NCBI GenBank assembly: GCA_040754295.1 | Contig: JBFMCQ010000003.1 | Span: 19,381 to 83,380 of the forward strand | Origin: Pseudomonadota bacterium | Lineage (GTDB): Bacteria > Pseudomonadota > Gammaproteobacteria > Nevskiales > Nevskiaceae | DNA length: 64,000 bases | Direction: 5' to 3' | Shown: one piece after another, positions 8,617 to 50,442 of the stretch | Numbering within the stretch: position 1 is the stretch's first letter | Layout of the letters: each line of letters begins with the position of its first letter | Notes under the pieces: model-generated | What the model was told of the DNA's origin: nothing | Databases searched by the model: none | Seen by the model: the letters and a program-made list of their open reading frames with translations, nothing else | Made by a program: the position numbers and the translations under genes

Positions 8617-8618
8617 GC

Positions 8619-13811: not shown

Positions 13812-13836
13812 GCCGCGCGCGTTCCCCGCGCACCCG

Positions 13837-14919
13837 CTAAGAGCCGAGCAGCTCGCGGTAAACGGCCAGATTGCCGTCGACCATCGCGTCGAGCGAGAAC
13901 TCGCGTGCGATCAGCGCCGGGCCGCCTGCGCCGAGCCGGCGGCGCAGCGCATCGTCGGTGAGCAGCCGCAGCAGCGCGGCCTGCAGTGCCGCGGCGTCTC
14001 CGGGCGGGACGAGCAGTCCGTTCTCGCCGTCGCGCACCGCTTCCGGCATGCCGCCGGCGCGGCTGGCGATGATCGGCACGCCGGCGGCCGCGGCCTGCAG
14101 CAGCGAAACGCCCAGGCCTTCGATGTACGCCGGGTGCACGAGCAGGTCGAGGCAGCCCATCCAGCGCGGCAGATCGTCGCGAAAGCCGGCGAAGCGGACG
14201 TCTGCCTGCAGTCCCAGCCGCGCGACCTCGGCTGCGAGCGCTGCGCGCTGCGGCCCCCGCCCGAAGCAGAGGACGAGCGGACGCTGCGCCACCGGCATGC
14301 GCGCCAGCGCTTCGAACAGCACGCGATGGCCCTTGCGCTCGATCAGCTGCGCGACGACGCCGGCAACGAGCCGGTTCTCCGGCAGATCGAAGGCCGCCCG
14401 AAACTCGGTGCGCGCGGCCGGACGCGTCCACGCCTGCGCGTCGACGGCGCTGCGCACGACGCGGATGCGATCCGCGGCTACGCCCTCGTTGCGCAGCACT
14501 GCGGCGATGCCCTCGGAGATGCAGATCACGCGCGCGTACTGCCGGTACTTCAGTTGCGCCCACCAGCGCACTTCCGGGTTGTCGACGCGGCGCGACAGCA
14601 GCGCCGGCACGCGACAGCGGCGCGCCGCGATACCGCCGAGCAGGTCCGCGCCGCGGCGCGAATGCAGATGCACGAGCTGCGGCCGCTCGGCGGCGATCGT
14701 GCGCGACAGCCGGCCGACGAAGCCCAGATCGAGATCGCCGCTGCAGCGCAGCTCGACGACTTTCACCCGGCTCTCGCGGAAACGCGCGCCGATCGCCGCG
14801 CCCGGCGGACACACCAGCACGTTGTCGACGCCGCGGCGCGCAAGACCGTCGAGCAGATAGGCGAGCTGCTGCGCGCCGCCGTAGAGGTGCATGCCGGTTT
14901 CGACGTGCAGGATCTTCAT
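13837..14919 (-). CDS. Glycosyltransferase family 4
   Basis: This is an internal start within track ORF 13837..15765 (MKILHVETGMHLYGGAQQLAYLL...). The motif is HPAYIEGLGVSLLQAAAAGVPIIASRAGGMPEAV. It has an ATGA overlap with the upstream GT9 gene. Confidence 0.85.
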   Translation of the reverse strand: MKILHVETGMHLYGGAQQLAYLLDGLARRGVDNVLVCPPGAAIGARFRESRVKVVELRCSGDLDLGFVGRLSRTIAAERPQLVHLHSRRGADLLGGIAARRCRVPALLSRRVDNPEVRWWAQLKYRQYARVICISEGIAAVLRNEGVAADRIRVVRSAVDAQAWTRPAARTEFRAAFDLPENRLVAGVVAQLIERKGHRVLFEALARMPVAQRPLVLCFGRGPQRAALAAEVARLGLQADVRFAGFRDDLPRWMGCLDLLVHPAYIEGLGVSLLQAAAAGVPIIASRAGGMPEAVRDGENGLLVPPGDAAALQAALLRLLTDDALRRRLGAGGPALIAREFSLDAMVDGNLAVYRELLGS

Positions 14920-15980
14920 TCGCCCGCGCCCGGCTCGGGGCCGCGATCGCGGCCGGGGGCCACGCCTATGGGCCTTGCCAGGAGCGCGCGTGCAGCCTGC
15001 GCGACGCGCTGCGGTGTGAGCTGGCGCATGCAGGTGTAGGCGCCGGCGCAAGTCGGGTGGCGCTTGCACGGCGCGCAGGGCAGGGCGTCGTAGAGCACCG
15101 TGAGCGGCGAGTCGGCGCCGCGCGTGTACGGACAGGTCGAGCCGAACAGCGCGATCGTCGGCGTGCCGGCGGCGATGCCGATATGCGTCAGCCCGGTATC
15201 GACACCGATGACCAGCGCCGCCTGCGCCAGCCAGGCGGGCAGATCGGGCAGGGCGGTGGCGCCGGCGAGGCTCAGGCTGCCCGGCGGCATCTGCGCGACC
15301 AGCGCGTCGGCCGGTGCGCGGTCGGCCGGTCCGCCGAGGACCGCGCAGCGTCCAAGCCCGGCCTCGGCCAGCAGGCGCGCCAGCTCCGGCCAGTACGCGT
15401 CCGGCCAGTGCTTCTGCGCGCGCGTCGTGAACGGGCACAGCGCAATGAACCCGGGCTCGACTGCGGCTGCCTGCATGGCCGCCTGCACGCGCTCCGTCGC
15501 AGCCGGCGTGACGGGCAGCTGCGGTGGACCCGCGGGCGTGCCGGTGAGCCGCTCGGCGAGGTAGCGGTACTCCGAGGCGATGTCGGCGATGTCGCCGCCC
15601 TTGTCGATCTGCTCGTGCAGCAGCCAGCCGAGCGGCTCCTTCGAGCAGAAGCCGACGCGCCGCTCGCCACCGGCGAGCCAGGCGAGCAGGCGCGACTTGG
15701 CGAGGCCCTGGGCGTCGATGACCAGATCGTAGCGCCGGCCGCGCAGTGCCTTGCGCAGCCGCCATAGTGCGGCGGGCGAGGACAGCGCCGGCCTGGGCGT
15801 CGCGATGACCCGGGCGATGCGCGGATCGTCGCGCAGTAGTCCGGCGAAGCCGGTTTGCGCCAGCCAGTCGATCGCCGCGTCCGGCCAGGCGCGGCGCAGC
15901 CCTTCGAGCAGGCTGGTACAGAAGACGAGATCGCCGAGCGCCGACAGGCGCACGATCAGGATGCGCTGAGCTTGAGCCAA
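14916..15980 (-). CDS. Glycosyltransferase family 9 (ADP-heptose:LPS heptosyltransferase)
   Basis: The 354-aa ORF has the N-terminus RILIVRLSALGDLVFCTSLL and the C-terminal motif VIGVDTGLTHIGIAAGTPTIALFG, both typical of WaaC/WaaF-type GT9 enzymes. I cannot tell which heptosyltransferase it is. Confidence 0.85.
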   Translation of the reverse strand: MAQAQRILIVRLSALGDLVFCTSLLEGLRRAWPDAAIDWLAQTGFAGLLRDDPRIARVIATPRPALSSPAALWRLRKALRGRRYDLVIDAQGLAKSRLLAWLAGGERRVGFCSKEPLGWLLHEQIDKGGDIADIASEYRYLAERLTGTPAGPPQLPVTPAATERVQAAMQAAAVEPGFIALCPFTTRAQKHWPDAYWPELARLLAEAGLGRCAVLGGPADRAPADALVAQMPPGSLSLAGATALPDLPAWLAQAALVIGVDTGLTHIGIAAGTPTIALFGSTCPYTRGADSPLTVLYDALPCAPCKRHPTCAGAYTCMRQLTPQRVAQAARALLARPIGVAPGRDRGPEPGAGE

Positions 15981-16084
15981 GCGAAGAAGTCCCTGCCGGG
16001 TTGTTTTCGGAACGGCATGATACCCGCGGGCGTGCCGGTCAGGCCCTATAATCCGCGTTTCCGCTGACCTTCCCGGTGCCCCAC

Positions 16085-17008
16085 ATGACGTCTTTTGCCG
16101 ACCGCGACGGCTATATCTGGTATGACGGCGAGCTCAAGCCCTGGCGCGACTGCACGACCCACGTCCTGACCTACACGCTGCACTACGGCGTCGGCTGCTT
16201 CGAAGGCGTGCGCGCCTACAAGACGCCCAACGGCACCGCGATCTTCCGCCTCGAAGAGCACACCAGGCGGCTCTTCAACTCGGCGAAGATCCTCGGCATG
16301 CAGATGCCGTGGAGCGCGGAGCAGCTCAATGCCGCGCAGAAGGACGTGCTGCGCGCGAACGAGCTCGAGGAAGCCTACATCCGGCCGATGGTGTTCTACG
16401 GCTCCGAAGGCATGGGGCTACGCGCCTCCGGTCTGGCGACGCACGTGATCGTCGCCGCCTGGGCCTGGGGCGCGTATCTGGGCGCCGACAACATGGAGCG
16501 CGGCATCCGCATCAAGACCAGCTCGTTCGCGCGCCACTACGTCAATGCCTCGATGTGCCGTGCCAAGGCCAATGCCAACTATCTGAACTCGTCGATGGCG
16601 CTCAACGAAGTGCTGCGCGACGGCTACGACGAGGCGCTGATGCTCGACCCGGACGGCTACGTCGCCGAGGGCAGCGCCGAGAACATCTTTCTCGTCACGG
16701 GCGGCGTCATCAGCACGCCGGACGTGACCTCCGCGCTCGACGGCATCACCCGCCGCACGGTCATGCAGCTGGCGCAGGACTTCGGCTACAAGGTCGTGGA
16801 GCGCCGCATCACCCGCGACGAGGTCTACATCTGCGACGAGGCCTTCTTCACCGGCACGGCGGCCGAGGTCACGCCGATCCGCGAGATCGACAACCGTCCG
16901 ATCGGCAGCGGCGCGCGCGGCCCGGTGACCGAGAAGCTGCAGAAGGCCTATCTGGATCTGGTCAAGGGCCGCAGCGAGAAGTATCCCGAGTGGCTGGCGT
17001 ATATCTGA
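16085..17008 (+). CDS. ilvE: Branched-chain amino acid aminotransferase
   Basis: [17 protein letters not shown]...[12 protein letters not shown]...[16 protein letters not shown]... Length and motifs are those of class IV IlvE. I used the ATG at 16085 rather than the GTG at 16076 in the track. Confidence 0.9.
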
Positions 17009-21308: not shown

Positions 21309-23039
21309 TTACGGCGCTGCGAGGCTTTGCTCGCGCACCGCCTTGAACTCCGAGCCTTCCTTCCAGTGCGGCCAGTCGTCGCCGTTGGCGACGCGCCAGC
21401 CGACCGCCAGCAGTACCTGCATGTCCTGCGCGGCGCCGCTCAGATCCCAGTCCGGCTTCACCTCGTCCGACACCGCGTGATAGTCGTTGGCGGTGTATTG
21501 CTGGCGCTTCTTCAAGCCGTAGCCGGCCGGTTTGCCGATGACTTCGTTGCCGCCGTCGGCGTACAGCGCCGGCACGCCGACCTTGGCGAACTCGAACTGG
21601 TCGGAGCGGTAATAGAAGCCCTTTTCCGGCTCCTCGTCGGGCACGATCACGCGGCCGTGCTCGGCGACGACTTCGGCGAGCACGTCCTCGAGCGTGTTCT
21701 GCCCGATGCCGATGATCTGGATGTCGCGCGTCGGTCCCCAGGGGTTGAGCCCGTCCATGTTGATCATCGCCGGCGTGCGCTGCAGCGGGTAGAGCGGATG
21801 CGTCGCGTAGTGCCTGGCGCCGAGCAGGCCCTGCTCCTCGGCGGTGACCGCCATGAACAGCACCGAGCGCTTCGGCGGCGTCGAGAGCTTGCTGTACGCC
21901 TCGGCGATCTCGAGCACGCCGGCGGTGCCGCTGGCGTTGTCGAGTGCGCCGTTGAAGATCTGATCGCCTTCGAGCGCCGTATTGCGCCCCAGGTGGTCCC
22001 AGTGCGCCGAGTAGATCACGTGCTCGCCGGCATGCTGCGGCGACGAGCCGGGCAGGCGCGCGATGACGTTCTGCGACTGCACCTCGCGCAGCTTCGTCGT
22101 GATCCGGAAGCTGGCCTTGGCCTCGAGCGGCACCGGGCTGAAGTCGCGCCGCACCGCGGCGCGCTTGAGCGCTTCGAAGTTCTGCCCCGTGGCGCGGAAC
22201 AGCGCCTGTGCCTTCTCGTTGGAGATCCAGCCCTGCACCGGCACGCTGTTCATGTTCTTGTCGGCGGCGGCGAGCTGGAACTGCTCGCCGCTCCAGCTGT
22301 GCTCGACCACCGCCCACGGATAGCCGGCCGGACCGGTCTCGTGAATGATGATCGCCGCCGCGGCGCCGAGCTTGGACGCGATCTCGTACTTGTAGGTCCA
22401 GCGGCCGTAGTAGGTCATCGCCTTGCCGCGGAACATGCTGTCGTCGAGTCGCGACGGGTCCAAAGGGTCGGGGACGGCCGGATCATTGACCAGCATGACC
22501 AGTGTCTTGCCGCGGACGTCCACGCCCTTGTAGTCGTCCCAGCCGTATTCCGGCGCCTGCACGCCGTAGCCGACGAAGACCAGCTCGGCATCGTTGACCT
22601 CGACTTCGGGTACGAAGCGCGCGGTGACGGCGACGAAGTCGCTGCCCCGGCGCATCCTCAGCTTGCGCGGCCCGGCCCACAGCGTCATGCGCGGGGAGCT
22701 GGTGATGCCGACCAGCGGCACGTCCTGCACGTAGCTGCCGTCCGGATTGCCGGGCGCCAGCCCCATCGCCCTGAACTGCTCGACGAGGTAGGCGACGGTT
22801 TTCTCCTCGCCGATGGTGCCGGGCAGGCGGCCGGCGAACGCGTCCGACGACAGCGTGCGCACGTGGCGCATGAGGTCGTCCGCGGTGATGCTCTCGACCG
22901 CCGCGGCATCCAGCGCCGGCGGTGGCGGCGTGGGCGCCGGTGTGGCGACGACCGCGGCCGGCGGCGGCGCCGCACAGCCGGCGGCGAGCAGCGCCGCGGC
23001 GCCAAACCCGCAGCGTAAAAGCGTCTTCGTGCGCATCAT
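21309..23039 (-). CDS. M28-family metallo-aminopeptidase, lipoprotein, with PA domain
   Basis: The 576-aa ORF has a lipobox (LLAAGC) and zinc-ligand contexts ([42 protein letters not shown]). Confidence 0.85.
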
Positions 23040-23103: not shown

Positions 23104-25167
23104 TCACGGTCCGATCCAGCGTTTCAGCCAGGCGCGTACCGTCTCGTGCCACTGCACGCTGTTCTGCGGCTTGAGCACCCAGTGGTTCTCGTCGGGGAAG
23201 ATCAGCAGCTGGCTGGGGACGCCGCGGCGCTGCAGCGCGGTGAACGCGGCGATGCCCTGTTCCGGGGGCACGCGATAGTCCTTCTCGCCGTGAATGACCA
23301 GCATCGGCGTTTTCCACTCGGTGACCTGTGTGGCCGGGTTGTGCTTCTCGTAGGCGCCGGGCGCGACGAAGTACGGCGCGCCGTGCTCCCACTCGTCGAA
23401 CCACAGCTCTTCGGTGCTGTAATACATGCTGCGGTTGTCGAAGATGCCGTCGTGCGAAACCAGCGCCTTGAAGGCTCCGGGCCACTGGCTCGCGATCCAG
23501 TTGATCATGTAGCCGCCGTACGACGCACCCAGCGCCGCCGCGCGGGTTGCGTCGAGGAAGTCGTAGGTCTTGAGCGCGTGCGCCCAACCCTTCTGCAGGT
23601 CGACCAGCGGCTTGCCGCCCCAGTCGCCGGAGATCGAGTCAGTGAACTTCTGGCCGTAGCCGGTGGAGCCGTGGAAGTCGATGAACACGACGGCGTAGCC
23701 CCAGCCGGAGTACACCGCCGGATTCCAGCGGTAGTGCCAGTCGTTGCCCATGCTGCCCTGCGGGCCGCCGTGCACGATGAAGGCGACCGGGTACTTCTTG
23801 CCGGGACGGTAGTTCCACGGCTTCATCACGTAGCCGTAGACGGTTTCGTCGTTCCAGCCGTCGAACGCGAACTGCTCGTAGTCGCCGAAGCGGATCGGTG
23901 CGAGCGTTTCGGCGTTGTGCTGCGTCAGGCGCTGCGGGGTGGTTTCACCGTGCGCGAGGCGATACAGATCGACCGGCGCGCTCAGCGTGTCGAAGCCGTA
24001 GACGATCGCATCGGCGCCGGCGCTGAAGCCCGAGACGTGGCCGCTGGCGGTGAGCGCACTCGGCTTGCCGCTGGCGACGTCGATGGCGAACAGGCGGTGG
24101 TTGCCGATGTCGTCGGCGGTCGTGTACAGCGTCTTGCCGTCGGGCGAGAACGCGAGGTTGCCGGCCGAGCGATCCCAGCCCGGTGCCACCTCGCGGGTGT
24201 CGCCGGTCTTGAGGTCGCGCAGCCAGATCGCGAGGCGATCCGCTTCGAAGCCCGGGCGCCTCATCGCGCGCCAGGCGAGATAACGGCCGTCCGGCGAGAA
24301 CACAGGGCCGACGTCGACGGCCTGGTTCGTCGGCGTGAGGTTCTTCGGCGCGGCCGAGCCGTCGGCGGGCACCCACCACAGGTCGAGATTGGTGCTCCAG
24401 GCTTCGGTCGTGCCGGCGATGCGCGCGGTGAACGCGAGGTGCCTGCCGTCCGGCGCGAACGCGTACTCCGAGGCATCGCCGAAGGGTTTCGACGGCACGT
24501 CGCCGTCGATGCCCTTGCTCACGTGCACCGGGTCGAGCGCGCGGCCGTCGGCGTCGAGCCTGAGCGTGAACAGCTGCGCGCGCGTGCCGTCCTTCCAGCT
24601 GTCCCAGTGGCGGATGAAGAGCTTGTCGAAGAGCATGCCGCTGCGCTTGTCCGCGGCGCGCTCGTCGAGCCGCTTCTTCGTGCACGCGAGATCCGCGCAG
24701 TCGGGAAAGACCTCCATCGACACCGCGATGCGCGTGCCGTCGGGCGACAGCGCGAAGCTGCCGACCGCGAGCGGCAGCTCGGTGACCGGCTTGGCGTCAC
24801 CGCCTTCGGCCAGATCGAGCCGCCACACCTGCGCACTGCCGCTGCGCGTCGACAGGAAGTAGATCCAGCGGCCGTCGGGCGACCAGCGGGGGTCGCTGTG
24901 ATTGCCTTCGGCGTGCGTCAGCTGGCGCGTCTGCCCGCCGGCGAGATCGAGCAGCCAGAGGTCCGTCACCCCCTTGTTCGCCTCGTAGTCCGTGCGCCGC
25001 AGCGTGTAGACCGCCTGCCTGCCGTCGGGCGAGAGCTGCGGGTCGGAGACGCGCACGAGGCGCACGAGGTCGTCGGCCGAGAACGGGCGAGGGCCTTGCG
25101 GGGATGTGGTCGGCATGGCGGCAGTGGCGGTGAGCGCAAGCAGTGCACCCACGATCAAGGATCTCAT
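23104..25167 (-). CDS. S9-family serine peptidase (prolyl oligopeptidase/acylaminoacyl-peptidase type)
   Basis: The 687-aa ORF has a signal peptide, an N-terminal beta-propeller-like region with repeated SPDG motifs, and a C-terminal alpha/beta hydrolase (GASYGGYM nucleophile elbow). Confidence 0.9.
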
Positions 25168-25341: not shown

Positions 25342-27060
25342 ATGAGCACGAATCCCCATGCGCGGCCCGGAGATTTCCTGGGCCACCCGAAGGGCCTGTA
25401 CGTCTGCTTCTTCACCGAGATGTGGGAGCGCTTTTCGTTCTACGGCATGAAGGCGCTGCTGCTGCTGTACCTCCTCAAGTACCACCTGTTCGGCGACGAT
25501 GCCGGCTACGACCTGCTCGGCGCCTACGGCGGGCTGGTCTATGCGGTGCCGGTGATCGGCGGCCTGCTCGCCGACCGCTACCTCGGCATGCGCAAAGCGG
25601 TCGTTCTCGGCGGCGTGCTGCTGGTGCTCGGCCATCTGGGCATGGCGTTCGAAGGCGAGCAGGCGCGTATCGTCGACGGCGCCGTCGTGCGCGACGAGAG
25701 TGCGCTGCAGGTGTTCTATCTGTCGCTGGCGCTGATCATCATGGGCGTCGGTTTTCTCAAGCCGAACATTTCGACGATCGTCGGCAAGCTGTATCCCGAG
25801 AACGACCCTCGGCGCGATTCGGGCTTCACGCTGTTCTATGCCGGCATCAACGTCGGCGCGTTGTTCGCGAGCCTGGTCTGCGCCTTCCTCGGCGAGACCT
25901 ACGGCTGGAAGTACGGGTTCGGCGCGGCCGGCATCGGCATGATCGCCGGACTCGGCGTGTTCCTCTGGGGCCAGAAGTATCTCGAAGGCCACGCCGAGCC
26001 CAGCGACCCGGCGAAGCTGCGCGAGCGCGTCGCCGGCCTGCCGCGCGAGGCGTGGATTTATCTCGGCAGTGTCGGCGGCGTGCTCGTCGTCTGGCAGCTG
26101 ATCCAGCGCACGTGGACCGTGCATGGCGCGATGCACGTGATCGCGCTGGCCTTCCTCGCGTGGTTCGTCTGGTTTCTGGTCGCCAAGTGCACGCGCGAGG
26201 AGCGCGGGCAGATGATCTCGCTGGTCGTGCTGATCCTCGCCGTGCTGGTGTTCTTCACGATGTATGAGCAGACCTATGGCTCCTGGATTACGTTCACCGA
26301 CCGGCTGCTGACCAAGGATCTGTTCGGCGCCATCGCCGCCGACGGCGCCGTCCGACTGCCGTGGGCGATCTTCGCGCTCGCCGGAAGCCCGGTGCTGATG
26401 GTGGCGGCGCTCGCCGGCGCCGACCGCGGCCGGCGCGGCCTCGCGCATGCGCTGGTCGGCCTGATGGTGCTCGGCTTCGTCGCCGCGCTCGCGCACGACG
26501 TCGTGCTGGTGCGCCAGACCGCCGGCTCGCTGACCTTCCTCGGTGCGTTCTTCATCGTGCTGCTGGCGCCGCTATTCGCATGGCTGTGGCCGTGGCTCGC
26601 CCGGCGCGGCCTCAACCCGAGCACGCCGCTGAAGATGGCGATCGGGCTCGCCGTTGCCGGCACGGCGTTTCTGCCGCTGATCGCCGCCGCCGAGATCGCG
26701 GCGACGGGCACGATGGCCAGTGTCTGGTGGCTCGTGCTCGCCTATCTGCTGCTCGAGATCGGCGAGGTCTGCCTGTCGCCGATCGGCCTGTCCGCGGTCA
26801 CACAGCTGTCGGTCGCGCGCGTCGTCGGCCTGATGATGGGCGCGTTCTGGCTCGCGACCGCGTACTCGGAGGTGCTCGCCGCGCAGTTCGGCAAGCTGGC
26901 GTCGATCGAACTCGTCGAAGGCGCGGCGCTCGACATGGCGGCCGCGGCGGTGAAGTACGAAGGCCTGTTCGCGACGATGCTGTGGATCGGGCTGGGCGCG
27001 GGCGCGGTCGTGCTGCTGCTGACGCCGCTGCTCAGGCGGGCGATGCACGGCGTGAAGTAA
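25342..27060 (+). CDS. POT/PTR2-family proton-dependent di-/tripeptide transporter
   Basis: The 572-aa ORF contains HPKGLYVCFFTEMWERFSFYGMKALLLLYL, the signature PTR2 motif. Confidence 0.9.
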   Translation: MSTNPHARPGDFLGHPKGLYVCFFTEMWERFSFYGMKALLLLYLLKYHLFGDDAGYDLLGAYGGLVYAVPVIGGLLADRYLGMRKAVVLGGVLLVLGHLGMAFEGEQARIVDGAVVRDESALQVFYLSLALIIMGVGFLKPNISTIVGKLYPENDPRRDSGFTLFYAGINVGALFASLVCAFLGETYGWKYGFGAAGIGMIAGLGVFLWGQKYLEGHAEPSDPAKLRERVAGLPREAWIYLGSVGGVLVVWQLIQRTWTVHGAMHVIALAFLAWFVWFLVAKCTREERGQMISLVVLILAVLVFFTMYEQTYGSWITFTDRLLTKDLFGAIAADGAVRLPWAIFALAGSPVLMVAALAGADRGRRGLAHALVGLMVLGFVAALAHDVVLVRQTAGSLTFLGAFFIVLLAPLFAWLWPWLARRGLNPSTPLKMAIGLAVAGTAFLPLIAAAEIAATGTMASVWWLVLAYLLLEIGEVCLSPIGLSAVTQLSVARVVGLMMGAFWLATAYSEVLAAQFGKLASIELVEGAALDMAAAAVKYEGLFATMLWIGLGAGAVVLLLTPLLRRAMHGVK

Positions 27061-27160: not shown

Positions 27161-28594
27161 TCAACGGATCCTGTATCTGCACAGCGCCAGCAGTGCCAGC
27201 AGCAGACTCAGGCCCAGCGCTCCGCCGCCGCCACCGCCGGAGGAGTCGTCGCTGCACTCCGCCGGTGCCGCGCTGCCCGGATTCTTGCCGCCGATCGCGC
27301 GGCAGCCGCTGCCGGTCGGATCCAGCCAGGCCTTGAGCTGTGCCGACGGCTCCGCGCCGGCGGTCCATTGCCGCTCGAGGCGGGCGTAGAAGTCCGGCTC
27401 GTCGTTGTCGATGTTGCCTTCGCAGGCGGCGCTGCCGCCGGAAAGCACACCGACGATGCGGCGATTCTGGTTCCAGAGTCCGCTTCCGGATGAGCCTTCC
27501 TCGGTGGTGCCCTGCGCCCAGCGCCGAACCTCCCATGCCGGAATCTGCGGGCCGCCGGCTGTGATCTGCACATTGGCTGCTACAAGCGGCGCCGTGAACT
27601 CGCTGATCTTCTTCGCGTCGCCTGACGGGTGGTGGATGCTCACGCCGCTGTTGCCGCCAGCACCGCTGGCATCCCAGCCGGCGTAGTAGACGTTGAAGGC
27701 GGCGCTCGGCGGCTGGTTCAGCTCGATCAGCGACAGATCAGTGTCGCGGTCCCGGGCGCGCAGCGTCGCACCGCTCTGCGCCTGATCGTCCGGCGCGTTG
27801 TCGACACCGCAGGCGCTGTTCTGGAAGTTCCAGTAGACGACGACGCCCGATGCCGGGCTGCCGATGCGGCCGATCCCGCAGTGATCTGCGGTCAGGATGA
27901 AAGGCCTGTCGTCCTGTGCGGTGTTGTTGACGAGGGTGCCGCTGCACAGGCCGACGAAGCCGAGCGTCACCGGAACCTGCACCTTGACCACCGAGCGGCT
28001 CTCCTCGCGCCAGGCGTCGCCGAGCGGGCAGACCGCGTCGATGTTGCATGCGCCCGAGTCGCCGAGCTGGGCGGCGTTCCTGTAGGCATGACCGAGCCGG
28101 CCGAGGTGCAGCTCGACGTCCTCGCGCCGGCGGGTCGGCACCTGCAGCTCGATCACCGCCGTTTCGCCCGGCACCATCGCGGTCCACAGGCTGCCATCGG
28201 CGGTGTGGTTGCGCGCGTCGTAAGGACCCTGAACGGCATGGCCGCCCGCGTCGTAGATCCACAGCGCAGCTTCCTCGGGCACGCGGAAGCGCGCGAATTC
28301 CATCAGCAGCGACTGCGCGCCGGCGGAGTAAACGCGCGTGCGCCAGCGGCTGACGCCGGCTTCCGGCTCGTCCCACACGCCGCCGGCGAGATCCACCGGC
28401 AGCGGCACGGTCACCGCGAACAGCGCCGGCCCGCTGCCCTTGACGTCCTGCGCCGCTTCGATCGCCTTGGCGGTCGCCGCAGGCGGAGCGACATGCAGCG
28501 GCAGCGCGTCCAGGTCGGACAGATCGCCGGCCGGGACCGCGGCAAGGCAGGTCGATGTCCAGCACAGCGCGCAGGCCAGAACGACGACGCGCAT
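27161..28594 (-). CDS. Secreted lysyl-endopeptidase-like (S1, Lys-C family) serine protease with GlyGly-CTERM-like tail (copy B)
   Basis: This is an internal start within track ORF 27161..29191 (MRVVVLACALCWTSTCLAAV, a signal peptide). The triad contexts are TADHCG, TDLSLIEL and GSSGSGLW. The C-terminus is ...CSDDSSGGGGGGALGLSLLLALLALCRYRIR*. Confidence 0.85.
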   Translation of the reverse strand: MRVVVLACALCWTSTCLAAVPAGDLSDLDALPLHVAPPAATAKAIEAAQDVKGSGPALFAVTVPLPVDLAGGVWDEPEAGVSRWRTRVYSAGAQSLLMEFARFRVPEEAALWIYDAGGHAVQGPYDARNHTADGSLWTAMVPGETAVIELQVPTRRREDVELHLGRLGHAYRNAAQLGDSGACNIDAVCPLGDAWREESRSVVKVQVPVTLGFVGLCSGTLVNNTAQDDRPFILTADHCGIGRIGSPASGVVVYWNFQNSACGVDNAPDDQAQSGATLRARDRDTDLSLIELNQPPSAAFNVYYAGWDASGAGGNSGVSIHHPSGDAKKISEFTAPLVAANVQITAGGPQIPAWEVRRWAQGTTEEGSSGSGLWNQNRRIVGVLSGGSAACEGNIDNDEPDFYARLERQWTAGAEPSAQLKAWLDPTGSGCRAIGGKNPGSAAPAECSDDSSGGGGGGALGLSLLLALLALCRYRIR

Positions 28595-28598
28595 GAGG

Positions 28599-30119
28599 TC
28601 ACCGCCCGATGGGCGGAAGTGCCGCACCGTATGCAGCGCAGCCCGAGCGGCGGCCGTGCACGAGTCGGCGCCCGGCGCCGGCCGCCAGCAGCAGCACCAG
28701 CAGCCACGGCGACACGGTGCCGCCGCCACCGCCGCCGCCGTCGCCGGGCGAAGCGGTCGGAGCCGGGCTCGCGGTGGGTGTGGGCGTTGGCGAGGGCGCT
28801 GGCGTTGGCACGGGACCTGCCCCCGCCTCCTTGCCGGCGACCTGTCGCAGGCCGGTATCGACAGCGTCGAGCCAGGCCTTGAGCTGGCCCGAGGCTTGCG
28901 GCTGCGCGGTCCACTGCCTGTCGAGCCGCGCGTAGAAATCCGGATCGTCCGATTGGGCACACGAGGCAGAGCCGCCAGAGAGTACGCCGACGATTCGGCG
29001 GTCCTGGTTCCACAAGCCCGAGCCGGAAGAGCCTTGCTCGGTCGTGCCCTGTGACCAGGTGACGCGCCACGCCGGAATGTCGAAGTCGCCGCCAGGCAGA
29101 CGGATGCTGCTCTGTACGAGCGGCGTCGTGAACTCGGTGACCTTCTTCGCGTCGCCGGACGGGTGGTGGATGGAGACGCCGCTGTCGCCACCGGTGCCGC
29201 TCGCGTCCCAGCCGGCGTAGTAGACGTTGAACGCGGCGCTCGGCCGCTGGCTCAGCTCCAGGAGCGACAGGTCGGTCGCCTCATCGCGTGCACGCAGCAC
29301 GGCGCCCGTCTGCGTCTGATCGTCCGGCGCATTGTCGGCGCCGTTGCAGGCGCTGTTCTGGAAGTTCCAGTAGACCACGACGCCGGACGGCGGGCTGGAA
29401 TTGCGGATGCCGCAATGATCGGCGGTCATCACGTATGCCTTGTCGTCCTGCGCGAGATTGTTGATCAGCGTGCCGCTGCACAGCCCGACGTTGTCGCCGC
29501 TCGGTATCTGCAGCTTCACGACCGAGCGAATCTCATCACGCCAGGCGTCCCCGAGCGGGCAGGCGGTGTCGATGTTGCATGGCCCCGAATCGCCGAGATC
29601 TCGCGCGTTCTTGTAGGCATGCCCCAGCCGGCCGAGGGCCAGTTCGACATCGCCGCGCTTTACGCTCGGCACACGCAGCTCGAGCACCGCGGTTTCGCCG
29701 GGCACCAGGGCCGTCCACAGGCTGCCTTCAGGGCTGTGGTTGCGCGCGTCGTAAGGGCCTTGCACGGTGCGCCCGGCGGCATCGTAGATCCACAGCGACG
29801 CGCCGTCGGGCACGTGGAAGCGCGTGAACTCCATCAGTAAGGCCTGTGCACCTGCGGAGTACACCCGTGTGCGCCAGCGGCCGACGCCGGCCTGCTCGTC
29901 CCAGACGCCGCCCGACAGGTCCACCGGCAGCGGAACGGTCACGGCGAACAGCGCCGGGCCGCGGCCCTTGACGTTTTCCGCAGCCTCGATCGCTTTTGCG
30001 GTAACCGCGGGCGATGCAACATGCAAGGGCAGAGCGTCGAGCCGCGACAGGTCCGGCTGCAAGGCGGCCTGCGCCGCGGGCAGCCACAAGGAAAGAACCA
30101 GCAGCCAGATGCGGCGCAT
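28599..30119 (-). CDS. Secreted lysyl-endopeptidase-like serine protease with P/T-rich linker and GlyGly-CTERM-like tail (copy A)
   Basis: This is an internal start within track ORF 28599..30338 (MRRIWLLVLSLWLPAAQAA), with GGAGA about 8 nt upstream. The triad contexts are TADHCG, TDLSLLEL and GSSGSGLW. The C-terminus is ...PVPTPAPSPTPTPTASPAPTASPGDGGGGGGGTVSPWLLVLLLAAGAGRRLVHGRR.... Confidence 0.85.
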   Translation of the reverse strand: MRRIWLLVLSLWLPAAQAALQPDLSRLDALPLHVASPAVTAKAIEAAENVKGRGPALFAVTVPLPVDLSGGVWDEQAGVGRWRTRVYSAGAQALLMEFTRFHVPDGASLWIYDAAGRTVQGPYDARNHSPEGSLWTALVPGETAVLELRVPSVKRGDVELALGRLGHAYKNARDLGDSGPCNIDTACPLGDAWRDEIRSVVKLQIPSGDNVGLCSGTLINNLAQDDKAYVMTADHCGIRNSSPPSGVVVYWNFQNSACNGADNAPDDQTQTGAVLRARDEATDLSLLELSQRPSAAFNVYYAGWDASGTGGDSGVSIHHPSGDAKKVTEFTTPLVQSSIRLPGGDFDIPAWRVTWSQGTTEQGSSGSGLWNQDRRIVGVLSGGSASCAQSDDPDFYARLDRQWTAQPQASGQLKAWLDAVDTGLRQVAGKEAGAGPVPTPAPSPTPTPTASPAPTASPGDGGGGGGGTVSPWLLVLLLAAGAGRRLVHGRRSGCAAYGAALPPIGR

Positions 30120-30434
30120 CGTCAGTCTCCGTTGGTCGGTCGCGCGTCCCTGCGCTGGTCCAACTAATGTGGGAATCAGCGGAGTGTAACCGCTCGCTGT
30201 TGCCGCATCGTGTGCACCGCGTCTCGCTTCGGCAAACGAGCCGGCCCCGCCAGATTCGGATGCAGGCCGACTGCCTGTCGTGCCCTGAAGCGTCGGACGT
30301 GATCCGTTGACCGCCGCGCGGAACCGCCGTGCCGTCACGCCGTCAGATTACAAGCCCGTTGGTAGCTGATCGGCGTCAATGCCGGTGTAGGAGCGGTTTC
30401 CCATGCTGACCGGGTTTCACATGCGAGTGTGCAC

Positions 30435-33400
30435 ATGCCGGTATTCCAGCGGTCGCAGCAGCAGCTTTCACGATCGGTCACCGAGGTCCGCCGCTTTCTG
30501 CGGCGCGGCGGGCGGCGGGTGTGGAGCAGCGGCCAGCGCGTCCACGTGGAGCTGCGCGAGCTGCCGCCGCAGCCGGGCGAGGCCGTGGCTGCGCTCGAGG
30601 CGGCGGCCGCGCGCGTGCGCGGTGTGGCCTGGGCGCGCGTGCGCGCCGATCTCGGCGCGCTGGTGGTGCAGCACCGCATCCGCGCCCGGCAGCCGCAGGC
30701 GCGCCGGGCCGCGGTCGAGCGCCTGGAGGACGCACTGGTGCGGGCCGTCGTCGACGCCGAAACCGCGCTGGGCCTGAACCGCGCGCCGCTGTCCGGCGTG
30801 GCCCATCCGGAGCGCCATCCGGGCCACTGGACGCCGCTGGCACGCACGCTGCTGGAGCTGGGGGTGGATGCCGCGAGCGTCGCCGGCGGCTGGGCGCTGC
30901 GCCGTGCCGGCGTCGGGCGCCCGAGCCTGGGCGTGGACCTGGCGGCGCTGCAGTCCGCCATGGCCAACACCCCGGCGCTGCGGCGCTGGTTGGAGCGCTA
31001 CCTCGGCATCGCGCTCACCGAAGTGGGGCTGGAGCTGTCCGGCGCCCTGCTGCATGCCGTGCTGCAGGGCGAGCTGGGTGCGGCGGCGGACATCCTGCAC
31101 CGCTCGCTGCGGCTGCGCGAGCTGGCGGCGCGCCGGCGCCTGTGGCAGCAGTGGGAGCCGCGCCTGTGCGCGGACGGCGAGCTCGTCGCGCCGCCGCCCG
31201 CGGCGCGGCCGCGTCCGCTGCCCGACGGTCCTTTCGAGCGCTACGCGGCGAGCGCTGCGGCCGGCACGCTCGCCGCCTTCGCCGCCACGCTGTTCGCTCG
31301 GGGCGAGATGGAGCAGGCCGCGGCCGCCATCTTCGGCGGCCTGCCCAAGCCGGCGCGGCGCGGCCGTGCCGCCTTCGCCGCGCAGCTCGGCTACCGCCTG
31401 GCCCGGGCCGGCGTGATGGTGATGGAGCCGCAGGTGCTGCGACACCTGGAGCGGCTGGATACGGTCGCCGTGAGCGCGGCGCTGATCGATACCGATCCGC
31501 AGGGCGCAAGCCGGCTGCTCGATGCCGCGGCCCGCGCGCAGTTCGGCTGCGTGGTGGTCGGCTCGCGCGTGCTCGACGCCGCCGCCGGCCGCGTGCGCCA
31601 CCTGGCGCTGCACGGCGCCGATGCGGTGCGCGCACTGCAGGAGGAGGGCCACGGCGTGATGTTCTTCGGCCGCGGTCCCGACGACGCCTACGCCGCCGCC
31701 GACTGCAGCATGGCGCTGTGGGACGAGGGCAGCCTGCCGGCGGCCGGCGCCCATCTGCACTGCGACGGCGGGCTGGCGCAGGCCGCGGCCCTGGTGGAAG
31801 CCGCCGCCACGGCGCGCCGCGCGGCCGAGCAGGTCCTGCAGCTGTCGATGGCCGAGGTGGCGCTGAGCCTGGCGCTCTCCGCCGGCGGCCTGGATCGCCA
31901 GGCCACGCGGCGCATCATGGCTGCGGCCAGCGCCGCCTCGGTGGTGGCCATGGCCGACGGGCTGCGTCTGGCGCAGGGCCTGGCCTGGCCCGCAAGCGCT
32001 GCCTCCGCCGCGGTCGCGGCGCCGGCCTGGCACCGTCTGACTGCGGACGAGGTGCTGCACCGGCTCGGCAGCCGCCTGCAGGGCCTGAGTGCGGAGGAGG
32101 CCGCCGCGCGGCGCCCGGTGCTGCCGCCCACGCCGCCGCGGCTGCTGCAGCTGGCGCGCCTCATGCTCGACGAGCTGCGCAACCCGATGACGCCCGCGCT
32201 GGCCGCCGGTGCCGGCCTGTCGCTGCTCGCCGGCGGCGCGGTCGACGCCCTGCTGGTGGCCGCCGTGCTGGCGGTGAATACGGCCTACGGCGGCCTGCAG
32301 CGCTATCGCGCCGACGCGCTGGTGCGGCAGCTGTCGCGGCACGAGCGCAGTTGCCTGCGGGTACGGCGCGACGGCGCCGTGTGCAGCGTCGCCGACGACG
32401 AGCTGGCGGTGGGCGACGTCCTCGAGCTGGGCGCCGACGAGCTGGTGCCCGCCGACTGCCGTATCCTCGAAGCCTGCGACCTGGAGGTGGACGAATCCAG
32501 CCTCACCGGCGAATCGCTGCCGGTGGCCAAGGCGCCCGGACCCTGCGACGCCGCCAACCTGGCGGAGCGCCGCTGCATGCTCTACCAGGGCACGGCGGTC
32601 TCGGCGGGGACCGCCGTGGCGGTGGTGGTCGCGCTCGGTGCCGACACCGAGCTGGGCCGCGCCGCGGCCGCCTCCGACGGGACCGCCTTCTCCTCGGGCG
32701 TGGAGGCGCGCCTGGCGCAGCTGACCCGCTACACGGTGCCGGTGGCGGCGGCGAGCGCGTTGGCGCTGGCGGCCAGCGAGCGCATGCGCGGCCGGCCGTT
32801 GCGCGAAGTGTTGTCGACGGCGGTGAGCCTGGCGGTGGCCGCGGTACCGGAGGGCCTGCCGCTGCTGGCCTCGCTGGCCCAGCTCGCGGCCGCCGGACGC
32901 CTGTCCCGGCGCGGAGCGCTGGTGCGCAGTGCGCGCGCCATCGAGGCGCTGGGCCGCATCGACCTGCTGTGCTGCGACAAGACCGGCACGCTCACCGAGG
33001 GCCGCATCCGTCTGGTGCGGGTCTCCGACGGCGACAGCGTGCAGGCTGCCGACGCGCTCGACGAGGCGCACCGGGAGATCGTCGCGGTGGCGCTGCGCGC
33101 CAGCCCGTCCAGCTCCGGCGGCGCGCCGGTGGCGCACATGACCGACCGGGCGCTGATCGAGGCGGCGCATGCGGCCGAGGTGGGCAGCCACGACGGCCTG
33201 AGCGACTGGCAGCGTCTGCACGAGATGCCCTTCCAGTCCGCGCGCGCCTTCCATGCCAGCCTCGCCGAGCATGGCGACGGCCGGCTGATCAGCGTCAAGG
33301 GGGCGCCCGAGGTGGTGCTGCCGCGCTGCCGCAGCCGGCGGCTCGGCGGCAGCGAGCAGGTGCTGGACCGGGCCGGCCGCGAGGCTCTGCTGCGCGAGGC

Positions 33401-34568
33401 CCGGGCGCTGGCGGGCCGCGGCTACCGCGTGCTGGCCGTGGCCGAGCGCGAGGCGCACGAGAAGCGCCCCATCGATCCGGACCGGGTCGACCGGCTGGGC
33501 TTCCGCGGCTTTATCGCCTTCGCCGACCCGGTACGGCCGAGCGCGCGCGCGGCGGTGGACCAGCTGCGCCGCGCGGGTGTCGGCGTGGTGATGCTCACCG
33601 GCGACCACCCGGACACCGCTGCGGCCATCGCCGCGGACCTGGGCCTCGACGGCGGTCGCCGCGTGGTCACCGGCGCCGAGCTGGACGCGCTCGGCGACGC
33701 CGAGCTGGCCGCGCTGGCACCGCAGGTGGCGGTGTTCGCGCGCGTCACGCCGGCGCATAAGGTGCGCATCGTCAGGGCGTTCCAGAGCCTCGGCCGCACC
33801 GTCGGCATGACCGGCGACGGCGCCAACGATGCGCCGGCCATCCGCCTGGCCGACGTCGGCATCGCCCTGGGCGAGCGCAGCACCGCCGCGGCGCGCAACG
33901 CCGCCGGCCTGGTGGTGACCGACGGCCGCATCGAGACCCTCGTCGGCGCGGTGCTGGAAGGGCGCGCGCTGTGGCTGTCGGTGCGCGACGCGCTGGGCCA
34001 GCTGGTCGGCGGCAACCTGGGCGAGATCGCCTTCACCCTGGCCGGCGGCCTGCTCGGCGGCCGCGCCCCGCTCAACGCGCGCCAGCTGCTGCTGGTGAAC
34101 CTGCTCACCGACGCCTTGCCGGCGCTGGCCCTGGCGCTGCGCCCGCCGGCCGGCAAGACGCCGGAAGACCTGCTGCGCGCCGGACCCGAAGCCAGCCTCG
34201 GCCCCGAGCTGATGCGCGAGCTGAGCCTGCGCGCCGGCATCACCGCGACGGTGGCCACGGCGGCCTGGACGGCGGCGCGTCTGGGCGGCCGCCGGGGTGC
34301 CGGCAGCGTCGGGCTGCTGGCGCTCACCGGCACCCAGCTCACCCAGGCGCTGCTGGTCGGGCGCGGCAACCGCGCGGTGACCCTGGCCAGCCTCGGTTCG
34401 CTGGCGGCCCTGGTCGCGGTGGTGCAGACGCCGGTGCTGAGCCAGTTCTTCGGCTGCCGCCCGCTGGGGCCGATCGGCCTGCTGCAGGCGGCCGCCGCAT
34501 CCGCGGCCGGCGGCGCGGCCCAGGCGCTGCTGCCGCGCCTGCTGCGCCTTGGCGGAGCGCGGTCCTGA
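30435..34568 (+). CDS. Giant P-type (P2-like) cation-transporting ATPase with a ~480-aa N-terminal degenerate ATPase-like extension
   Basis: The C-terminal ~900 aa carry canonical motifs: TGES (LTGESLP), PEGLP, CCDKTGTLTEG, MLTGDHP and MTGDGANDAPAIRLADVG. The N-terminal part carries degenerate look-alikes. GC3 is very high in this frame. The start could be the ATG at 30435 or the GTG at 30429. Confidence 0.85.
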   Translation: MPVFQRSQQQLSRSVTEVRRFLRRGGRRVWSSGQRVHVELRELPPQPGEAVAALEAAAARVRGVAWARVRADLGALVVQHRIRARQPQARRAAVERLEDALVRAVVDAETALGLNRAPLSGVAHPERHPGHWTPLARTLLELGVDAASVAGGWALRRAGVGRPSLGVDLAALQSAMANTPALRRWLERYLGIALTEVGLELSGALLHAVLQGELGAAADILHRSLRLRELAARRRLWQQWEPRLCADGELVAPPPAARPRPLPDGPFERYAASAAAGTLAAFAATLFARGEMEQAAAAIFGGLPKPARRGRAAFAAQLGYRLARAGVMVMEPQVLRHLERLDTVAVSAALIDTDPQGASRLLDAAARAQFGCVVVGSRVLDAAAGRVRHLALHGADAVRALQEEGHGVMFFGRGPDDAYAAADCSMALWDEGSLPAAGAHLHCDGGLAQAAALVEAAATARRAAEQVLQLSMAEVALSLALSAGGLDRQATRRIMAAASAASVVAMADGLRLAQGLAWPASAASAAVAAPAWHRLTADEVLHRLGSRLQGLSAEEAAARRPVLPPTPPRLLQLARLMLDELRNPMTPALAAGAGLSLLAGGAVDALLVAAVLAVNTAYGGLQRYRADALVRQLSRHERSCLRVRRDGAVCSVADDELAVGDVLELGADELVPADCRILEACDLEVDESSLTGESLPVAKAPGPCDAANLAERRCMLYQGTAVSAGTAVAVVVALGADTELGRAAAASDGTAFSSGVEARLAQLTRYTVPVAAASALALAASERMRGRPLREVLSTAVSLAVAAVPEGLPLLASLAQLAAAGRLSRRGALVRSARAIEALGRIDLLCCDKTGTLTEGRIRLVRVSDGDSVQAADALDEAHREIVAVALRASPSSSGGAPVAHMTDRALIEAAHAAEVGSHDGLSDWQRLHEMPFQSARAFHASLAEHGDGRLISVKGAPEVVLPRCRSRRLGGSEQVLDRAGREALLREARALAGRGYRVLAVAEREAHEKRPIDPDRVDRLGFRGFIAFADPVRPSARAAVDQLRRAGVGVVMLTGDHPDTAAAIAADLGLDGGRRVVTGAELDALGDAELAALAPQVAVFARVTPAHKVRIVRAFQSLGRTVGMTGDGANDAPAIRLADVGIALGERSTAAARNAAGLVVTDGRIETLVGAVLEGRALWLSVRDALGQLVGGNLGEIAFTLAGGLLGGRAPLNARQLLLVNLLTDALPALALALRPPAGKTPEDLLRAGPEASLGPELMRELSLRAGITATVATAAWTAARLGGRRGAGSVGLLALTGTQLTQALLVGRGNRAVTLASLGSLAALVAVVQTPVLSQFFGCRPLGPIGLLQAAAASAAGGAAQALLPRLLRLGGARS

Positions 34569-42675: not shown

Positions 42676-42840
42676 GCGCGCGGTTTAAGTGCTGTTTCTA
42701 CTGGGATTTGAGGGAAAACCCGGTTACTAAAGCCGTCGGCAATGGTGCTACCATCCGCGCCTTGCCCTCGCCGGCCCCGCATGTTTGCGCCGGTGCTCCC
42801 TGTTTCGAATCAATATTCCCCAGTGAAAGGAAATTCGCCC

Positions 42841-43620
42841 ATGTTCGACAGGCTGTTTCGAGCTGCAGCGCGCCAGCGTTGTGGCTGGGCTGCCGCAGGT
42901 CTGATGATCTGCGCGGTCGCTGCCGCGCAATCCACCGCGACCGTCGAGCGCGCGGTCAACGAGCAGGTCGGCGCCGAACAGGCTGCCCAGCAGACGCAGG
43001 GTCGCATCGAGCAGCTCGATGACGAGACTCGCCAGGCCGTCGCCGAATACCGGGCGGTCATCCAGGAGACCGATAGCCTGCGCCGCTACAACGAGCAGCT
43101 GCAGGCGACGCTGAAGTCCCAGATCGAAGAGATGGAGACGATGCAGCGTCAGCTCGGCGAGGTCGAGACCACCGCGCGTGAGATCGTGCCGCTGCTGCAG
43201 AAGATGCTGAAGACGCTCGAGGAGTTCGTGAAGCTCGATCTGCCGTTTCTGCCCGAGGAGCGCGCGCAGCGCATCGCCGGTCTCAAGGACATGATGACGC
43301 GCGCCGACGTCTCGATTGCCGAGAAGTTCCGCCGTATCGTCGAGGCCTACCAGATCGAGATGGAATACGGCCGCACGCTCGAAGCCTACCAGGGCAAGAT
43401 CGGCGAGCGCACCGTCGAGTTCCTGCGCGCGGGGCGCGCGTCGCTGATGTATCAGACGCTGGACGGCTCGGAGTCCGGCTACTGGGATGCCGAACGCAAG
43501 GACTGGGTCAGCGACAACGACTACGCCGACGCGGTGACCGCGGGTCTCAAGATCGCCAAGAAGCAGGCCGCACCGGATCTGCTGTTTGTCCCCGTCAGCG
43601 CGCCGAAGGAGGCGAAGTAA
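42841..43620 (+). CDS. DUF3450-domain protein (TtpB-like, first gene of a TonB2-type cluster)
   Basis: I chose the internal ATG at 42841, which has aaagga upstream. The protein has a signal peptide, a coiled-coil and the motif ...LDLPFLPEERAQRIAGLKDMMTRADVSIAEKFRRIVEAYQIEMEYGRT.... Confidence 0.85.
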   Translation: MFDRLFRAAARQRCGWAAAGLMICAVAAAQSTATVERAVNEQVGAEQAAQQTQGRIEQLDDETRQAVAEYRAVIQETDSLRRYNEQLQATLKSQIEEMETMQRQLGEVETTAREIVPLLQKMLKTLEEFVKLDLPFLPEERAQRIAGLKDMMTRADVSIAEKFRRIVEAYQIEMEYGRTLEAYQGKIGERTVEFLRAGRASLMYQTLDGSESGYWDAERKDWVSDNDYADAVTAGLKIAKKQAAPDLLFVPVSAPKEAK

Positions 43621-43621
43621 C

Positions 43622-44992: not shown

Positions 44993-45500
44993 TCTGCTCG
45001 CCGATGTCCGCGATCTGCTGGAGATCGGGGGTCCGGTCGTCCGTCTGCTGCTGATCGCGGCGTTCGTGCTGTGGGTGCTGATCCTGGAGCGCTGGCTGTA
45101 CGCGCGCCGCGAGCTGCCGAGGCTGGTCGCGCGCCTGCAATCCGAATGGGACGCGCGCAGCGATCACTCGTCCTGGTATGCGCGCCAGGTCAAGCGCAAG
45201 CTTCTTTCGGAAGCCACGCGCGCGATCCGCGGCAGCCTCGGCATGATCAAGGCACTCGTCGCGCTGGCCTCGCTGATCGGCCTGCTCGGTACGGTGACCG
45301 GCATGATCCAGGTCTTCGACGTGATGGCGACGCTGGGCACCGGCAACGCACGGGCGATGGCGTCCGGCGTGTCGGCCGCGACGATCCCGACGATGGCCGG
45401 CATGGTCGTTGCGATTTCCGGTCTTTATCCGATCTTGTGGCTCGAGAGGAAGCTGGCTCAGGAGACGAGCCGCCTCAACGACCACATGATCACGCATTGA
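44976..45500 (+). CDS. exbB: MotA/TolQ/ExbB proton-channel family protein
   Basis: I chose the internal start MVTPLDLLADVRDLLE.... The ExbB core is LASLIGLLGTVTGMIQVF...GVSAATIPTMAGMVVAI. Confidence 0.85.
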   Translation: MVTPLDLLADVRDLLEIGGPVVRLLLIAAFVLWVLILERWLYARRELPRLVARLQSEWDARSDHSSWYARQVKRKLLSEATRAIRGSLGMIKALVALASLIGLLGTVTGMIQVFDVMATLGTGNARAMASGVSAATIPTMAGMVVAISGLYPILWLERKLAQETSRLNDHMITH

Positions 45501-45513
45501 GTAAGGTGTAGTC

Positions 45514-48762: not shown

Positions 48763-48843
48763 GTGGGCTGGATATTCACTGCCGTGAACCCTGGCGGTTT
48801 CGCAACACGCACGCTGAACGACGCATTGTTAAGCTCACCGCCC

Positions 48844-50436: not shown

Positions 50437-50442
50437 TCGCGC

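Follow-up and report, generated by a model that had tools for sequence, protein, structure and literature searches.

Tandem Lys-C-like serine endopeptidases of a Nevskiaceae bacterium carry C-terminal tails of the GlyGly-CTERM type

What becomes of an exported protease whose chain ends in a run of glycines, a transmembrane (TM) helix and a cluster of basic residues? The question is raised by two neighboring genes in a 64,000-nucleotide stretch of DNA, hereafter the window, from a gammaproteobacterium of the family Nevskiaceae (assembly GCA_040754295.1, contig JBFMCQ010000003.1, positions 19,381 to 83,380). Both genes, copy A (28599..30119, stop codon included; 506 amino acids, aa) and copy B (27161..28594, stop codon included; 477 aa), encode Lys-C-like S1 pre-pro-endopeptidases and lie on the minus strand, which a preliminary description of this DNA had left unstated. 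In the best-supported reading, which we regard as probable, they are Lys-C-type pre-pro-enzymes that follow the GlyGly-CTERM route.

That copies A and B are real genes rather than products of chance is indicated by their 71% identity to one another over 442 residues, by scores above the Pfam gathering thresholds for both Trypsin_2 (PF13365) and Trypsin (PF00089), and by a guanine-plus-cytosine (GC) frequency at third codon positions (GC3) of 0.81 in both frames. This value is slightly below that of neighboring genes (0.88–0.93); the GC content of the window is ~70%. In the pairwise alignment the copies diverge only beyond the catalytic domain. The open reading frame (ORF) listing and an independent translation agreed with the preliminary description that two co-oriented paralogues lie 4 nucleotides (nt) apart, and the C-termini quoted there for both copies were exact. 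The 4-nt spacer, which separates the stop codon of copy A from the ATG of copy B (28595..28598, minus strand), implies co-transcription, in which case the copies would constitute one operon of paralogues. Neither a sigma-70 promoter nor an intrinsic terminator matching the consensus was detected around the pair.

The S1 catalytic domain occupies residues 176–430 of copy A (28830..29594, minus strand), with His235, Asp283, Ser365 and the S1 residue Asp394, and residues 178–437 of copy B (27284..28063, minus strand), with His238, Asp286, Ser369 and S1 Asp402. Every one of the triad contexts noted earlier (TADHCG, TDLSL.EL and GSSGSGLW) is present in both copies, TADHCG at A232–237 and B235–240, TDLSL(L/I)EL at A282 and B285, and GSSGSGLW at A363 and B367. 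The solved structures that best match copy B in sequence are Achromobacter protease I (API; 1arb, E 2.9e-49) and Lysobacter Lys-C (4nsy, 1.4e-45), and alignment to these enzymes, which had been proposed as a check, brought the whole triad and the S1 residue into register: API His57 aligns with TADHCG, Asp113 with TDLSL, Ser194 with GSSGSG, and the S1 residue Asp225 (RSDQYGR) with EPDFYAR. His235, Asp283, Ser365 and Asp394 of copy A are invariant among 34 aligned homologues. Copy A as modeled by AlphaFold (mean pLDDT 87.8, pTM 0.82) consists of a signal helix (residues 2–16), a beta-rich pro-domain (30–168), a flexible junction (171–180), the catalytic domain to ~430, a disordered linker, a helix at 471–488 and a disordered end. 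Foldseek placed the catalytic domain of this model on 1arb and 4nsy with TMt 0.87–0.88, the next matches, HtrA/DegP-type proteases, being far behind. Pfam, the alignment to 1arb and 4nsy, and Foldseek thus bear out the assignment of the pair to the Lys-C family of S1 proteases. With API and Lys-C the copies share the S1 fold (37% identity, TMt 0.87–0.88), the triad with Asp225, a long N-terminal pro-domain (PF27052) and the presence of a C-terminal extension. The extensions themselves differ, a short linker and GlyGly-CTERM-type tail in copies A and B standing in place of the large folded extension of API and Lys-C, which we take to be about 180 aa long in API.

Upstream of the catalytic domain, each copy begins with a signal peptide, as had been described, spanning residues 1–18/19; that of copy A (residues 1–18, MRRIWLLVLSLWLPAAQA; 30066..30119, minus strand) coincides with helix 2–16 of the model. 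The pro-domain follows at residues 19–175 of copy A (29595..30065, minus strand), where it is beta-rich and of the Lysyl_endopep_N type, with pLDDT >90 at residues 30–168, and at residues 20–177 of copy B (28064..28537, minus strand), where it is defined by a PF27052 match and by alignment to copy A. The assignment to PF27052 (Lysyl_endopep_N) comes from precomputed records for copy B and for homologues, orthologues among them, and the pro-domain assignment of copy A is based on the predicted structure. Alignment to Gly1 of API places the mature N-terminus, GDSG, at A176 and B178. Both copies therefore have the long N-terminal pro-domain that characterizes the Lys-C/API family, although at ~157–158 aa, with ~176 residues in all before the mature enzyme, it falls short of the ~190 aa first estimated. 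Close to the flexible junction between pro-domain and mature enzyme, copy A reads AYK (29604-29612) where copy B reads AYR (28073-28081), Arg being the family consensus at this position, and in both copies Leu directly precedes the aligned mature N-terminus, a place presumably taken by Lys in API. Because of this Leu and the Arg of AYR, self-activation by cutting after Lys is not obvious for copy B, as far as the sequence can indicate.

Downstream of the catalytic domain, copy A continues with a disordered Pro/Thr/Ala-rich linker (residues 431–458; 28746..28829, minus strand; pLDDT 44–67) and a GlyGly-CTERM-type tail (residues 459–491; 28647..28745, minus strand) made up of GDGGGGGGG, a TM helix that corresponds to 471–488 in the model, and RRLVHGRR. 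An extension, SGCAAYGAALPPIGR (28602..28646, minus strand), follows the basic cluster and contains 15 residues, not the 17 first counted. Copy B has a short linker with two Cys residues (GSGC...AEC; 27245..27283, minus strand) and a GlyGly-CTERM-type tail (residues 451–477; 27164..27244, minus strand) in which SSGGGGGG and a TM helix are followed by a terminal RYRIR, such that the protein ends at its basic cluster. Both C-termini thus present a tripartite arrangement of Gly/Ser motif, TM helix and basic cluster. The published description of such proteins further calls for a signal peptide and no further TM segment, and in the copy A model the signal peptide and helix 471–488 are the sole helices that lie outside folded domains. 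A metagenomic near-twin of copy B (P0001) differs from it by one residue, an Asp to Gly change upstream of the Gly run (CSDDSS vs CSDGSS), which falls in the linker adjoining the sorting motif.

How well do these tails score as sorting signals? The NCBIfam cutoffs are 15.5 bits for GlyGly-CTERM (TIGR03501), 19.7 for the MprA protease GlyGly-CTERM tail (TIGR03867) and 20 for MYXO-CTERM (TIGR03901). The sole match of full-length copy A was to TIGR03867, at 18.7 bits. As an isolated tail, copy A scored 13.4–15.1 bits on TIGR03501, 18.6–20.1 on TIGR03867 and 9.5 on MYXO-CTERM, and that of copy B scored 15.0–16.2 on TIGR03501 and 17.7–18.7 on MYXO-CTERM, with no match to TIGR03867. Neither tail matched PEP-CTERM, LPXTG or other sorting models to any meaningful degree. 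The model check that had been recommended left the GlyGly-CTERM part of the original proposal at a borderline level (13.4–16.2 bits against 15.5 on TIGR03501) and its MYXO-CTERM part below the cutoff of 20. Although TIGR03867 is the best-scoring model for the copy A tail (18.7 bits in the full protein, up to 20.1 when trimmed), it represents a different protease family, and the likeness is confined to the tail. The tripartite architecture claimed for both tails accordingly stands on the sequence, the model helix and borderline scores on TIGR03501 and TIGR03867.

Family-wide conservation strengthens this assignment. The authors of the GlyGly-CTERM model state that the hidden Markov model (HMM) misses true members, and the biocuration rule of Haft accepts a low-scoring tail if same-family homology runs into trusted examples. 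When 107 homologue tails were scanned singly against the sorting models, 34 scored at E ≤ 0.022 on TIGR03501, approximately the cutoff, the best at 3.7e-6, and the rule therefore extends to this family. The Gly run immediately before the helix is near-invariant across the 107 tails, and a tail in which a Gly run precedes a hydrophobic stretch and an Arg cluster is present in ~100 of the 120 best homologues, most of them from Nevskiales. Judged by architecture, borderline HMM scores and conservation throughout the family, the tag is real and is assigned to the GlyGly-CTERM type.

We propose the following route for the two enzymes. The Sec signal peptide visible in each sequence would export the precursor to the periplasm, and the ~158-aa pro-domain would serve as folding chaperone and inhibitor until its later removal. 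The Gly run, TM helix and basic cluster would hold the precursor in the inner membrane as a GlyGly-CTERM signal. By analogy with VesB of Vibrio cholerae, a rhombosortase encoded elsewhere would cut within the Gly run, the newly exposed C-terminal Gly would be joined to a glycerophosphoethanolamine-containing lipid, and a type II secretion system (T2SS) would move the enzyme to the cell surface, to be retained there or released later. The surface enzymes would then cut proteins into products that M28 and S9 peptidases trim and a POT transporter imports, functions suggested by the observed synteny of their genes. Copies A and B resemble VesA, VesB and VesC in their S1 fold, signal peptide, disordered linker and Gly-rich motif with a TM helix and basic residues after it, and in the occurrence of several paralogues per genome. 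While the Ves proteins are processed by the rhombosortase RssP/RrtA and exported by the T2SS, the corresponding steps for copies A and B are predicted by analogy. The Ves proteins also belong to the chymotrypsin/trypsin-type S1 subfamily, whereas copies A and B are API-type, and the Ves proteins presumably lack the 158-aa pro-domain. V. cholerae VesB is the only protein for which cutting in the Gly motif and modification with lipid have been demonstrated; the proposed rhombosortase processing, lipid attachment and T2SS export of copies A and B draw on this work and on published co-occurrence, a rhombosortase being present in 104 of the 108 genomes that encode GlyGly-CTERM proteins.

Several observations weigh against a GlyGly-CTERM route for Lys-C-type enzymes at this locus. 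Full-length copy A is 1 bit short of the TIGR03867 cutoff (18.7 vs 19.7), full-length copy B has no match in NCBIfam, and all tail scores of the two copies fall within the grey zone of Haft 2017 (TIGR03501, NO <12.5 and YES >16; TIGR03867, NO <16 and YES >20). Copy A is an atypical GlyGly-CTERM member because it has 15 residues past the basic cluster, compared with the 0–5 typical of such proteins (2011 paper); extensions akin to it are present in several homologues. The 64-kb window is without a rhombosortase or T2SS gene, no rhombosortase was found within 10 kb of 80 homologous protease loci, and no Lys-C-like gene was found within 10 kb of 80 metagenome rhombosortase loci. In addition, profile and representative searches demonstrated no rhombosortase for any Nevskiales genome. 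With respect to the enzymes themselves, API His210 and Trp169 have no counterpart in copies A and B, His210 facing Ser and Trp169 facing Ile in a gapped loop of the pairwise alignment. We assume these two API residues to be auxiliary ones that are important for high activity, and they mark API itself and do not define the family. Since they are unmatched, copies A and B are called Lys-C-like by homology, with strict Lys specificity a putative trait.

The missing enzyme was sought in several ways. Within the window, neither phmmer queries with GlpG and two further rhomboids nor the motif G.SG..[HYF]G nor an HMM derived from four rhombosortases revealed a rhomboid or rhombosortase gene, which agrees with the earlier view that the sorting enzyme is not encoded there; nor does the window hold other GlyGly-like tails. 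The lack of a rhombosortase beside the pair fits a rule from the literature: where a genome encodes several targets, the enzyme gene does not adjoin them. The sole rhomboid at the 80 protease loci was of the ordinary type (L025; SGAVF motif) and was rejected as a rhombosortase. No rhombosortase structure was found in the PDB, and a tblastn search of plasmids with GlpG gave ordinary rhomboids only. A tblastn search of plasmids with the published 15-mer QLLGYVGLSGMLHGL led to an annotated rrtA on Shewanella baltica pSbal01, and further copies were obtained from Variovorax, Cupriavidus and Aeromonas; the Shewanella seed and representative matches were confirmed on TIGR03902 (cutoff 84 bits) at 134–177 bits. 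The matches listed in a rhombosortase profile search of proteins came only from Shewanella, Aeromonas and Variovorax, and the representative search yielded 744 rhombosortase clusters at E < 1e-30, indicative of a very large family. Of the top 150 clusters, the ten with the highest GC content bore no Nevskiales name, and two of these ten came from samples other than those holding the protease locus.

These searches also provided information about rhombosortases in general. In a fairly GC-rich clade, rrtA is divergently oriented beside the T2SS operon gspG-H-I-J-K-L-M-N (L091 487-11604; also L092, L096, L106, L113, L117, L121 and others); one member of the clade, P0298, scores 151 bits on TIGR03902 and lies in a locus of 66% GC. 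At least gspG stands beside rrtA in 48 of 80 metagenome loci, and three or more gsp genes are present at 18 of the 29 rrtA loci of 10 kb or more, a genomic link that matches the experimental T2SS dependence of GlyGly-CTERM proteins. The betaproteobacterial rhombosortases of Variovorax paradoxus (L087 4001-4576; GLSGVLYG) and the Cupriavidus metallidurans CH34 megaplasmid (L088 3611-4540; GFSGVNYG) have Tyr at the motif position at which the 2011 paper reported His in "virtually all" rhombosortases. Each of these genes adjoins one for a large protein with a GlyGly-CTERM tail, and the Variovorax-type enzyme passes TIGR03902 at 134 bits.

Could the tail instead be a plain, uncleaved C-terminal anchor, by which the proteases are tethered to the inner membrane and face the periplasm instead of being sorted to the surface? 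Borderline HMM scores, the lack of a demonstrated rhombosortase for the lineage, and the long post-basic extensions of copy A and many homologues, unlike canonical GlyGly-CTERM, are all compatible with such an anchor. Nevertheless, we consider it unlikely. An anchor would not need the motif that is kept almost without change before the helix in the 107 tails, of which 34 reach the TIGR03501 cutoff. Moreover, a broad-acting endopeptidase retained in the periplasm would be hazardous, and the neighboring genes indicate extracellular protein scavenging.

A further possibility, and quite an unlikely one when all of its parts are taken together, is that copies A and B are sorted differently by design, with release and cross-activation between them. 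The canonical tail of copy B would be cut by the rhombosortase and the enzyme anchored on the surface by lipid, and copy A might escape normal processing. Copy A has a long Pro/Thr linker with a single Lys at its start and a 15-residue extension predicted to be cytoplasmic. It might free itself or copy B through a cut at this Lys, in the manner of V. cholerae VesC, and the AYR of copy B as against the AYK of copy A suggests that one enzyme might activate the other at the pro/mature junction.

The preliminary description had also left open a signal that resembles MYXO-CTERM, or is Cys-dependent in some other way, and is processed by an enzyme of the myxosortase (CPBP) type. The scores of copy B on TIGR03901 (17.7–18.7 bits), the cross-matches to that model in 24 of the 107 homologue tails, and the Cys located 8 residues ahead of the Gly run in copy B speak for this idea, which we nevertheless reject as very improbable. 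All TIGR03901 scores of the two copies (9.5–18.7 bits) are below the cutoff of 20. The Cys lies inside the motif in every MYXO-CTERM case and never in GlyGly-CTERM, and the Gly runs of copies A and B are both free of Cys; the two models are known to cross-react, and thus the 24 cross-matches are to be expected. The upstream position at which copy B has its Cys is free of Cys in copy A and most homologues, and the Cys of copy B has a second conserved Cys as partner in B-type orthologues only. Because both linker Cys residues recur in these orthologues, e.g. Fontimonas P0011, they are predicted to form a disulfide loop, which is likelier than a lipidation site. Finally, MYXO-CTERM is described for Myxococcota, whereas the relatives found here are Gammaproteobacteria of the order Nevskiales. 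The suggestion that the tails are meaningless read-through in DNA rich in Gly, Ala, Leu and Arg codons is scarcely conceivable: a GC content of ~70% and the resemblance of the 15-residue extension of copy A to a run-on toward the next gene would suit it, but it is contradicted by family-wide conservation of the tail, whose three-part order is the same in ~100 homologues at 42–72% identity and is kept behind unrelated linkers and extra cadherin-like domains, and which is modeled as a confident lone helix.

With a GlyGly-CTERM-type tail as the preferred reading, its combination with a Lys-C-family protease, initially thought unusual, proved to be widespread, being found in ~100 of the 120 best homologues, with the tandem pair itself kept in Fontimonas. 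The nearest named relatives, at 56–72% identity, are from Sinimarinibacterium, Fontimonas, Solimonas and Hydrocarboniphaga, all of Nevskiales. In this order the paralogues include one type with a Pro/Thr linker, to which copy A corresponds, one with a Cys loop, as in copy B, one with a Gly/Ser linker and one with extra cadherin-like domains, and all share the same kind of C-terminal tail. A survey across phyla, with each species represented by a single genome, detected the protease family in many of them, with a C-terminal module that varies by lineage: GlyGly-type tails occur in Nevskiales and other Gammaproteobacteria, type IX secretion system (T9SS)-type domains in Bacteroidota, and PPC-like domains or different ones in other lineages. 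Homologues from Bacteroidota, Acidobacteriota and Planctomycetota share the pro-domain and catalytic domain at 32–47% identity, whereas T9SS-type sorting domains, PPC-like or other modules replace the GlyGly tail. Haft and Varghese reported such swapping of sorting tails within families for GlyGly-CTERM families.

That S1-fold proteases use this sorting system is established knowledge, as is the system itself, and the pair reveals no new mechanism. In the literature searched, lysyl endopeptidase and GlyGly-CTERM are not mentioned together, and the supplementary table of GlyGly-CTERM proteins in Haft 2011 lists "trypsin-like" proteases, none of them annotated as lysyl endopeptidase. Well over a hundred database proteins share the exact architecture under the automatic annotations "lysyl endopeptidase" or "trypsin-like peptidase". 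Our analysis widens the list of families assigned to the GlyGly-CTERM/rhombosortase route to include the Lys-C (API) family, the rhombosortase step being a predicted one, and recognizes the GlyGly-type tail as the standard architecture of Nevskiales Lys-C-like proteases, situated within a conserved peptide-scavenging cluster. This is useful for the annotation of proteins that now carry only the two labels above, and will not surprise a specialist. The natural variants of the tail, with long post-basic extensions and with Pro/Thr or Gly/Ser linkers, should be useful for exploring the tolerance of rhombosortase.

The conserved cluster comprises, in addition to the pair, a POT/PTR2 di-/tripeptide transporter gene convergent with copy B (25342..27060, plus strand), a gene for a secreted S9 prolyl-oligopeptidase/DPP-type peptidase (23104..25167, minus strand) and one for an M28 aminopeptidase-family protein (21309..23039, minus strand). 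In Fontimonas sp. SYSU GA230001 (GCA_040066175.1) the A-type and B-type genes overlap by 4 nt, and as in the window the pair is followed by POT/PTR2, S9, M28, HDOD, EamA, HxlR and CMD genes. The presence of the same tandem pair and neighbors in Fontimonas indicates, at the level of gene content and order, that the duplication and the cluster predate the split of these genera. Conserved synteny suggests a shared function, and the cluster can be read as a unit that scavenges peptides from proteins. Approximately 20 kb from it, an oligopeptide-type ABC transporter (SBP_bac_5 and permease; 48763-51363), which adds peptide-uptake capacity, follows a DUF3450/ExbB/ExbD/TPR gene set of the TonB-type energy-transducing kind (42742-47863).

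Another tandem pair, of distantly related trypsin-like peptidases (~30% identity), is inserted between ruvA and ruvB on a Comamonas odontotermitis plasmid (NZ_CP083452.1; L085 9722-13281). One of the two has a lipoprotein-like N-terminus. This pair was rejected as a comparable system, since neither protein has a GlyGly tail and no rhombosortase is encoded nearby.

Elsewhere in the window, the most GC-rich part (75–77% GC) holds a 1379-aa ORF for a P-type cation ATPase (30429-34568, plus strand), whose Pfam domains all lie after residue 640; the ~640 N-terminal residues without a family match are either a long novel extension or the result of an over-called start. The region 8500-16100 has a weaker GC3 signal than elsewhere and many long ORFs that overlap on both strands; it includes glycosyltransferase genes with GT4/GT1 domains (10384-12714, plus strand; 13840-15765, minus strand) and is probably a surface-polysaccharide cluster.

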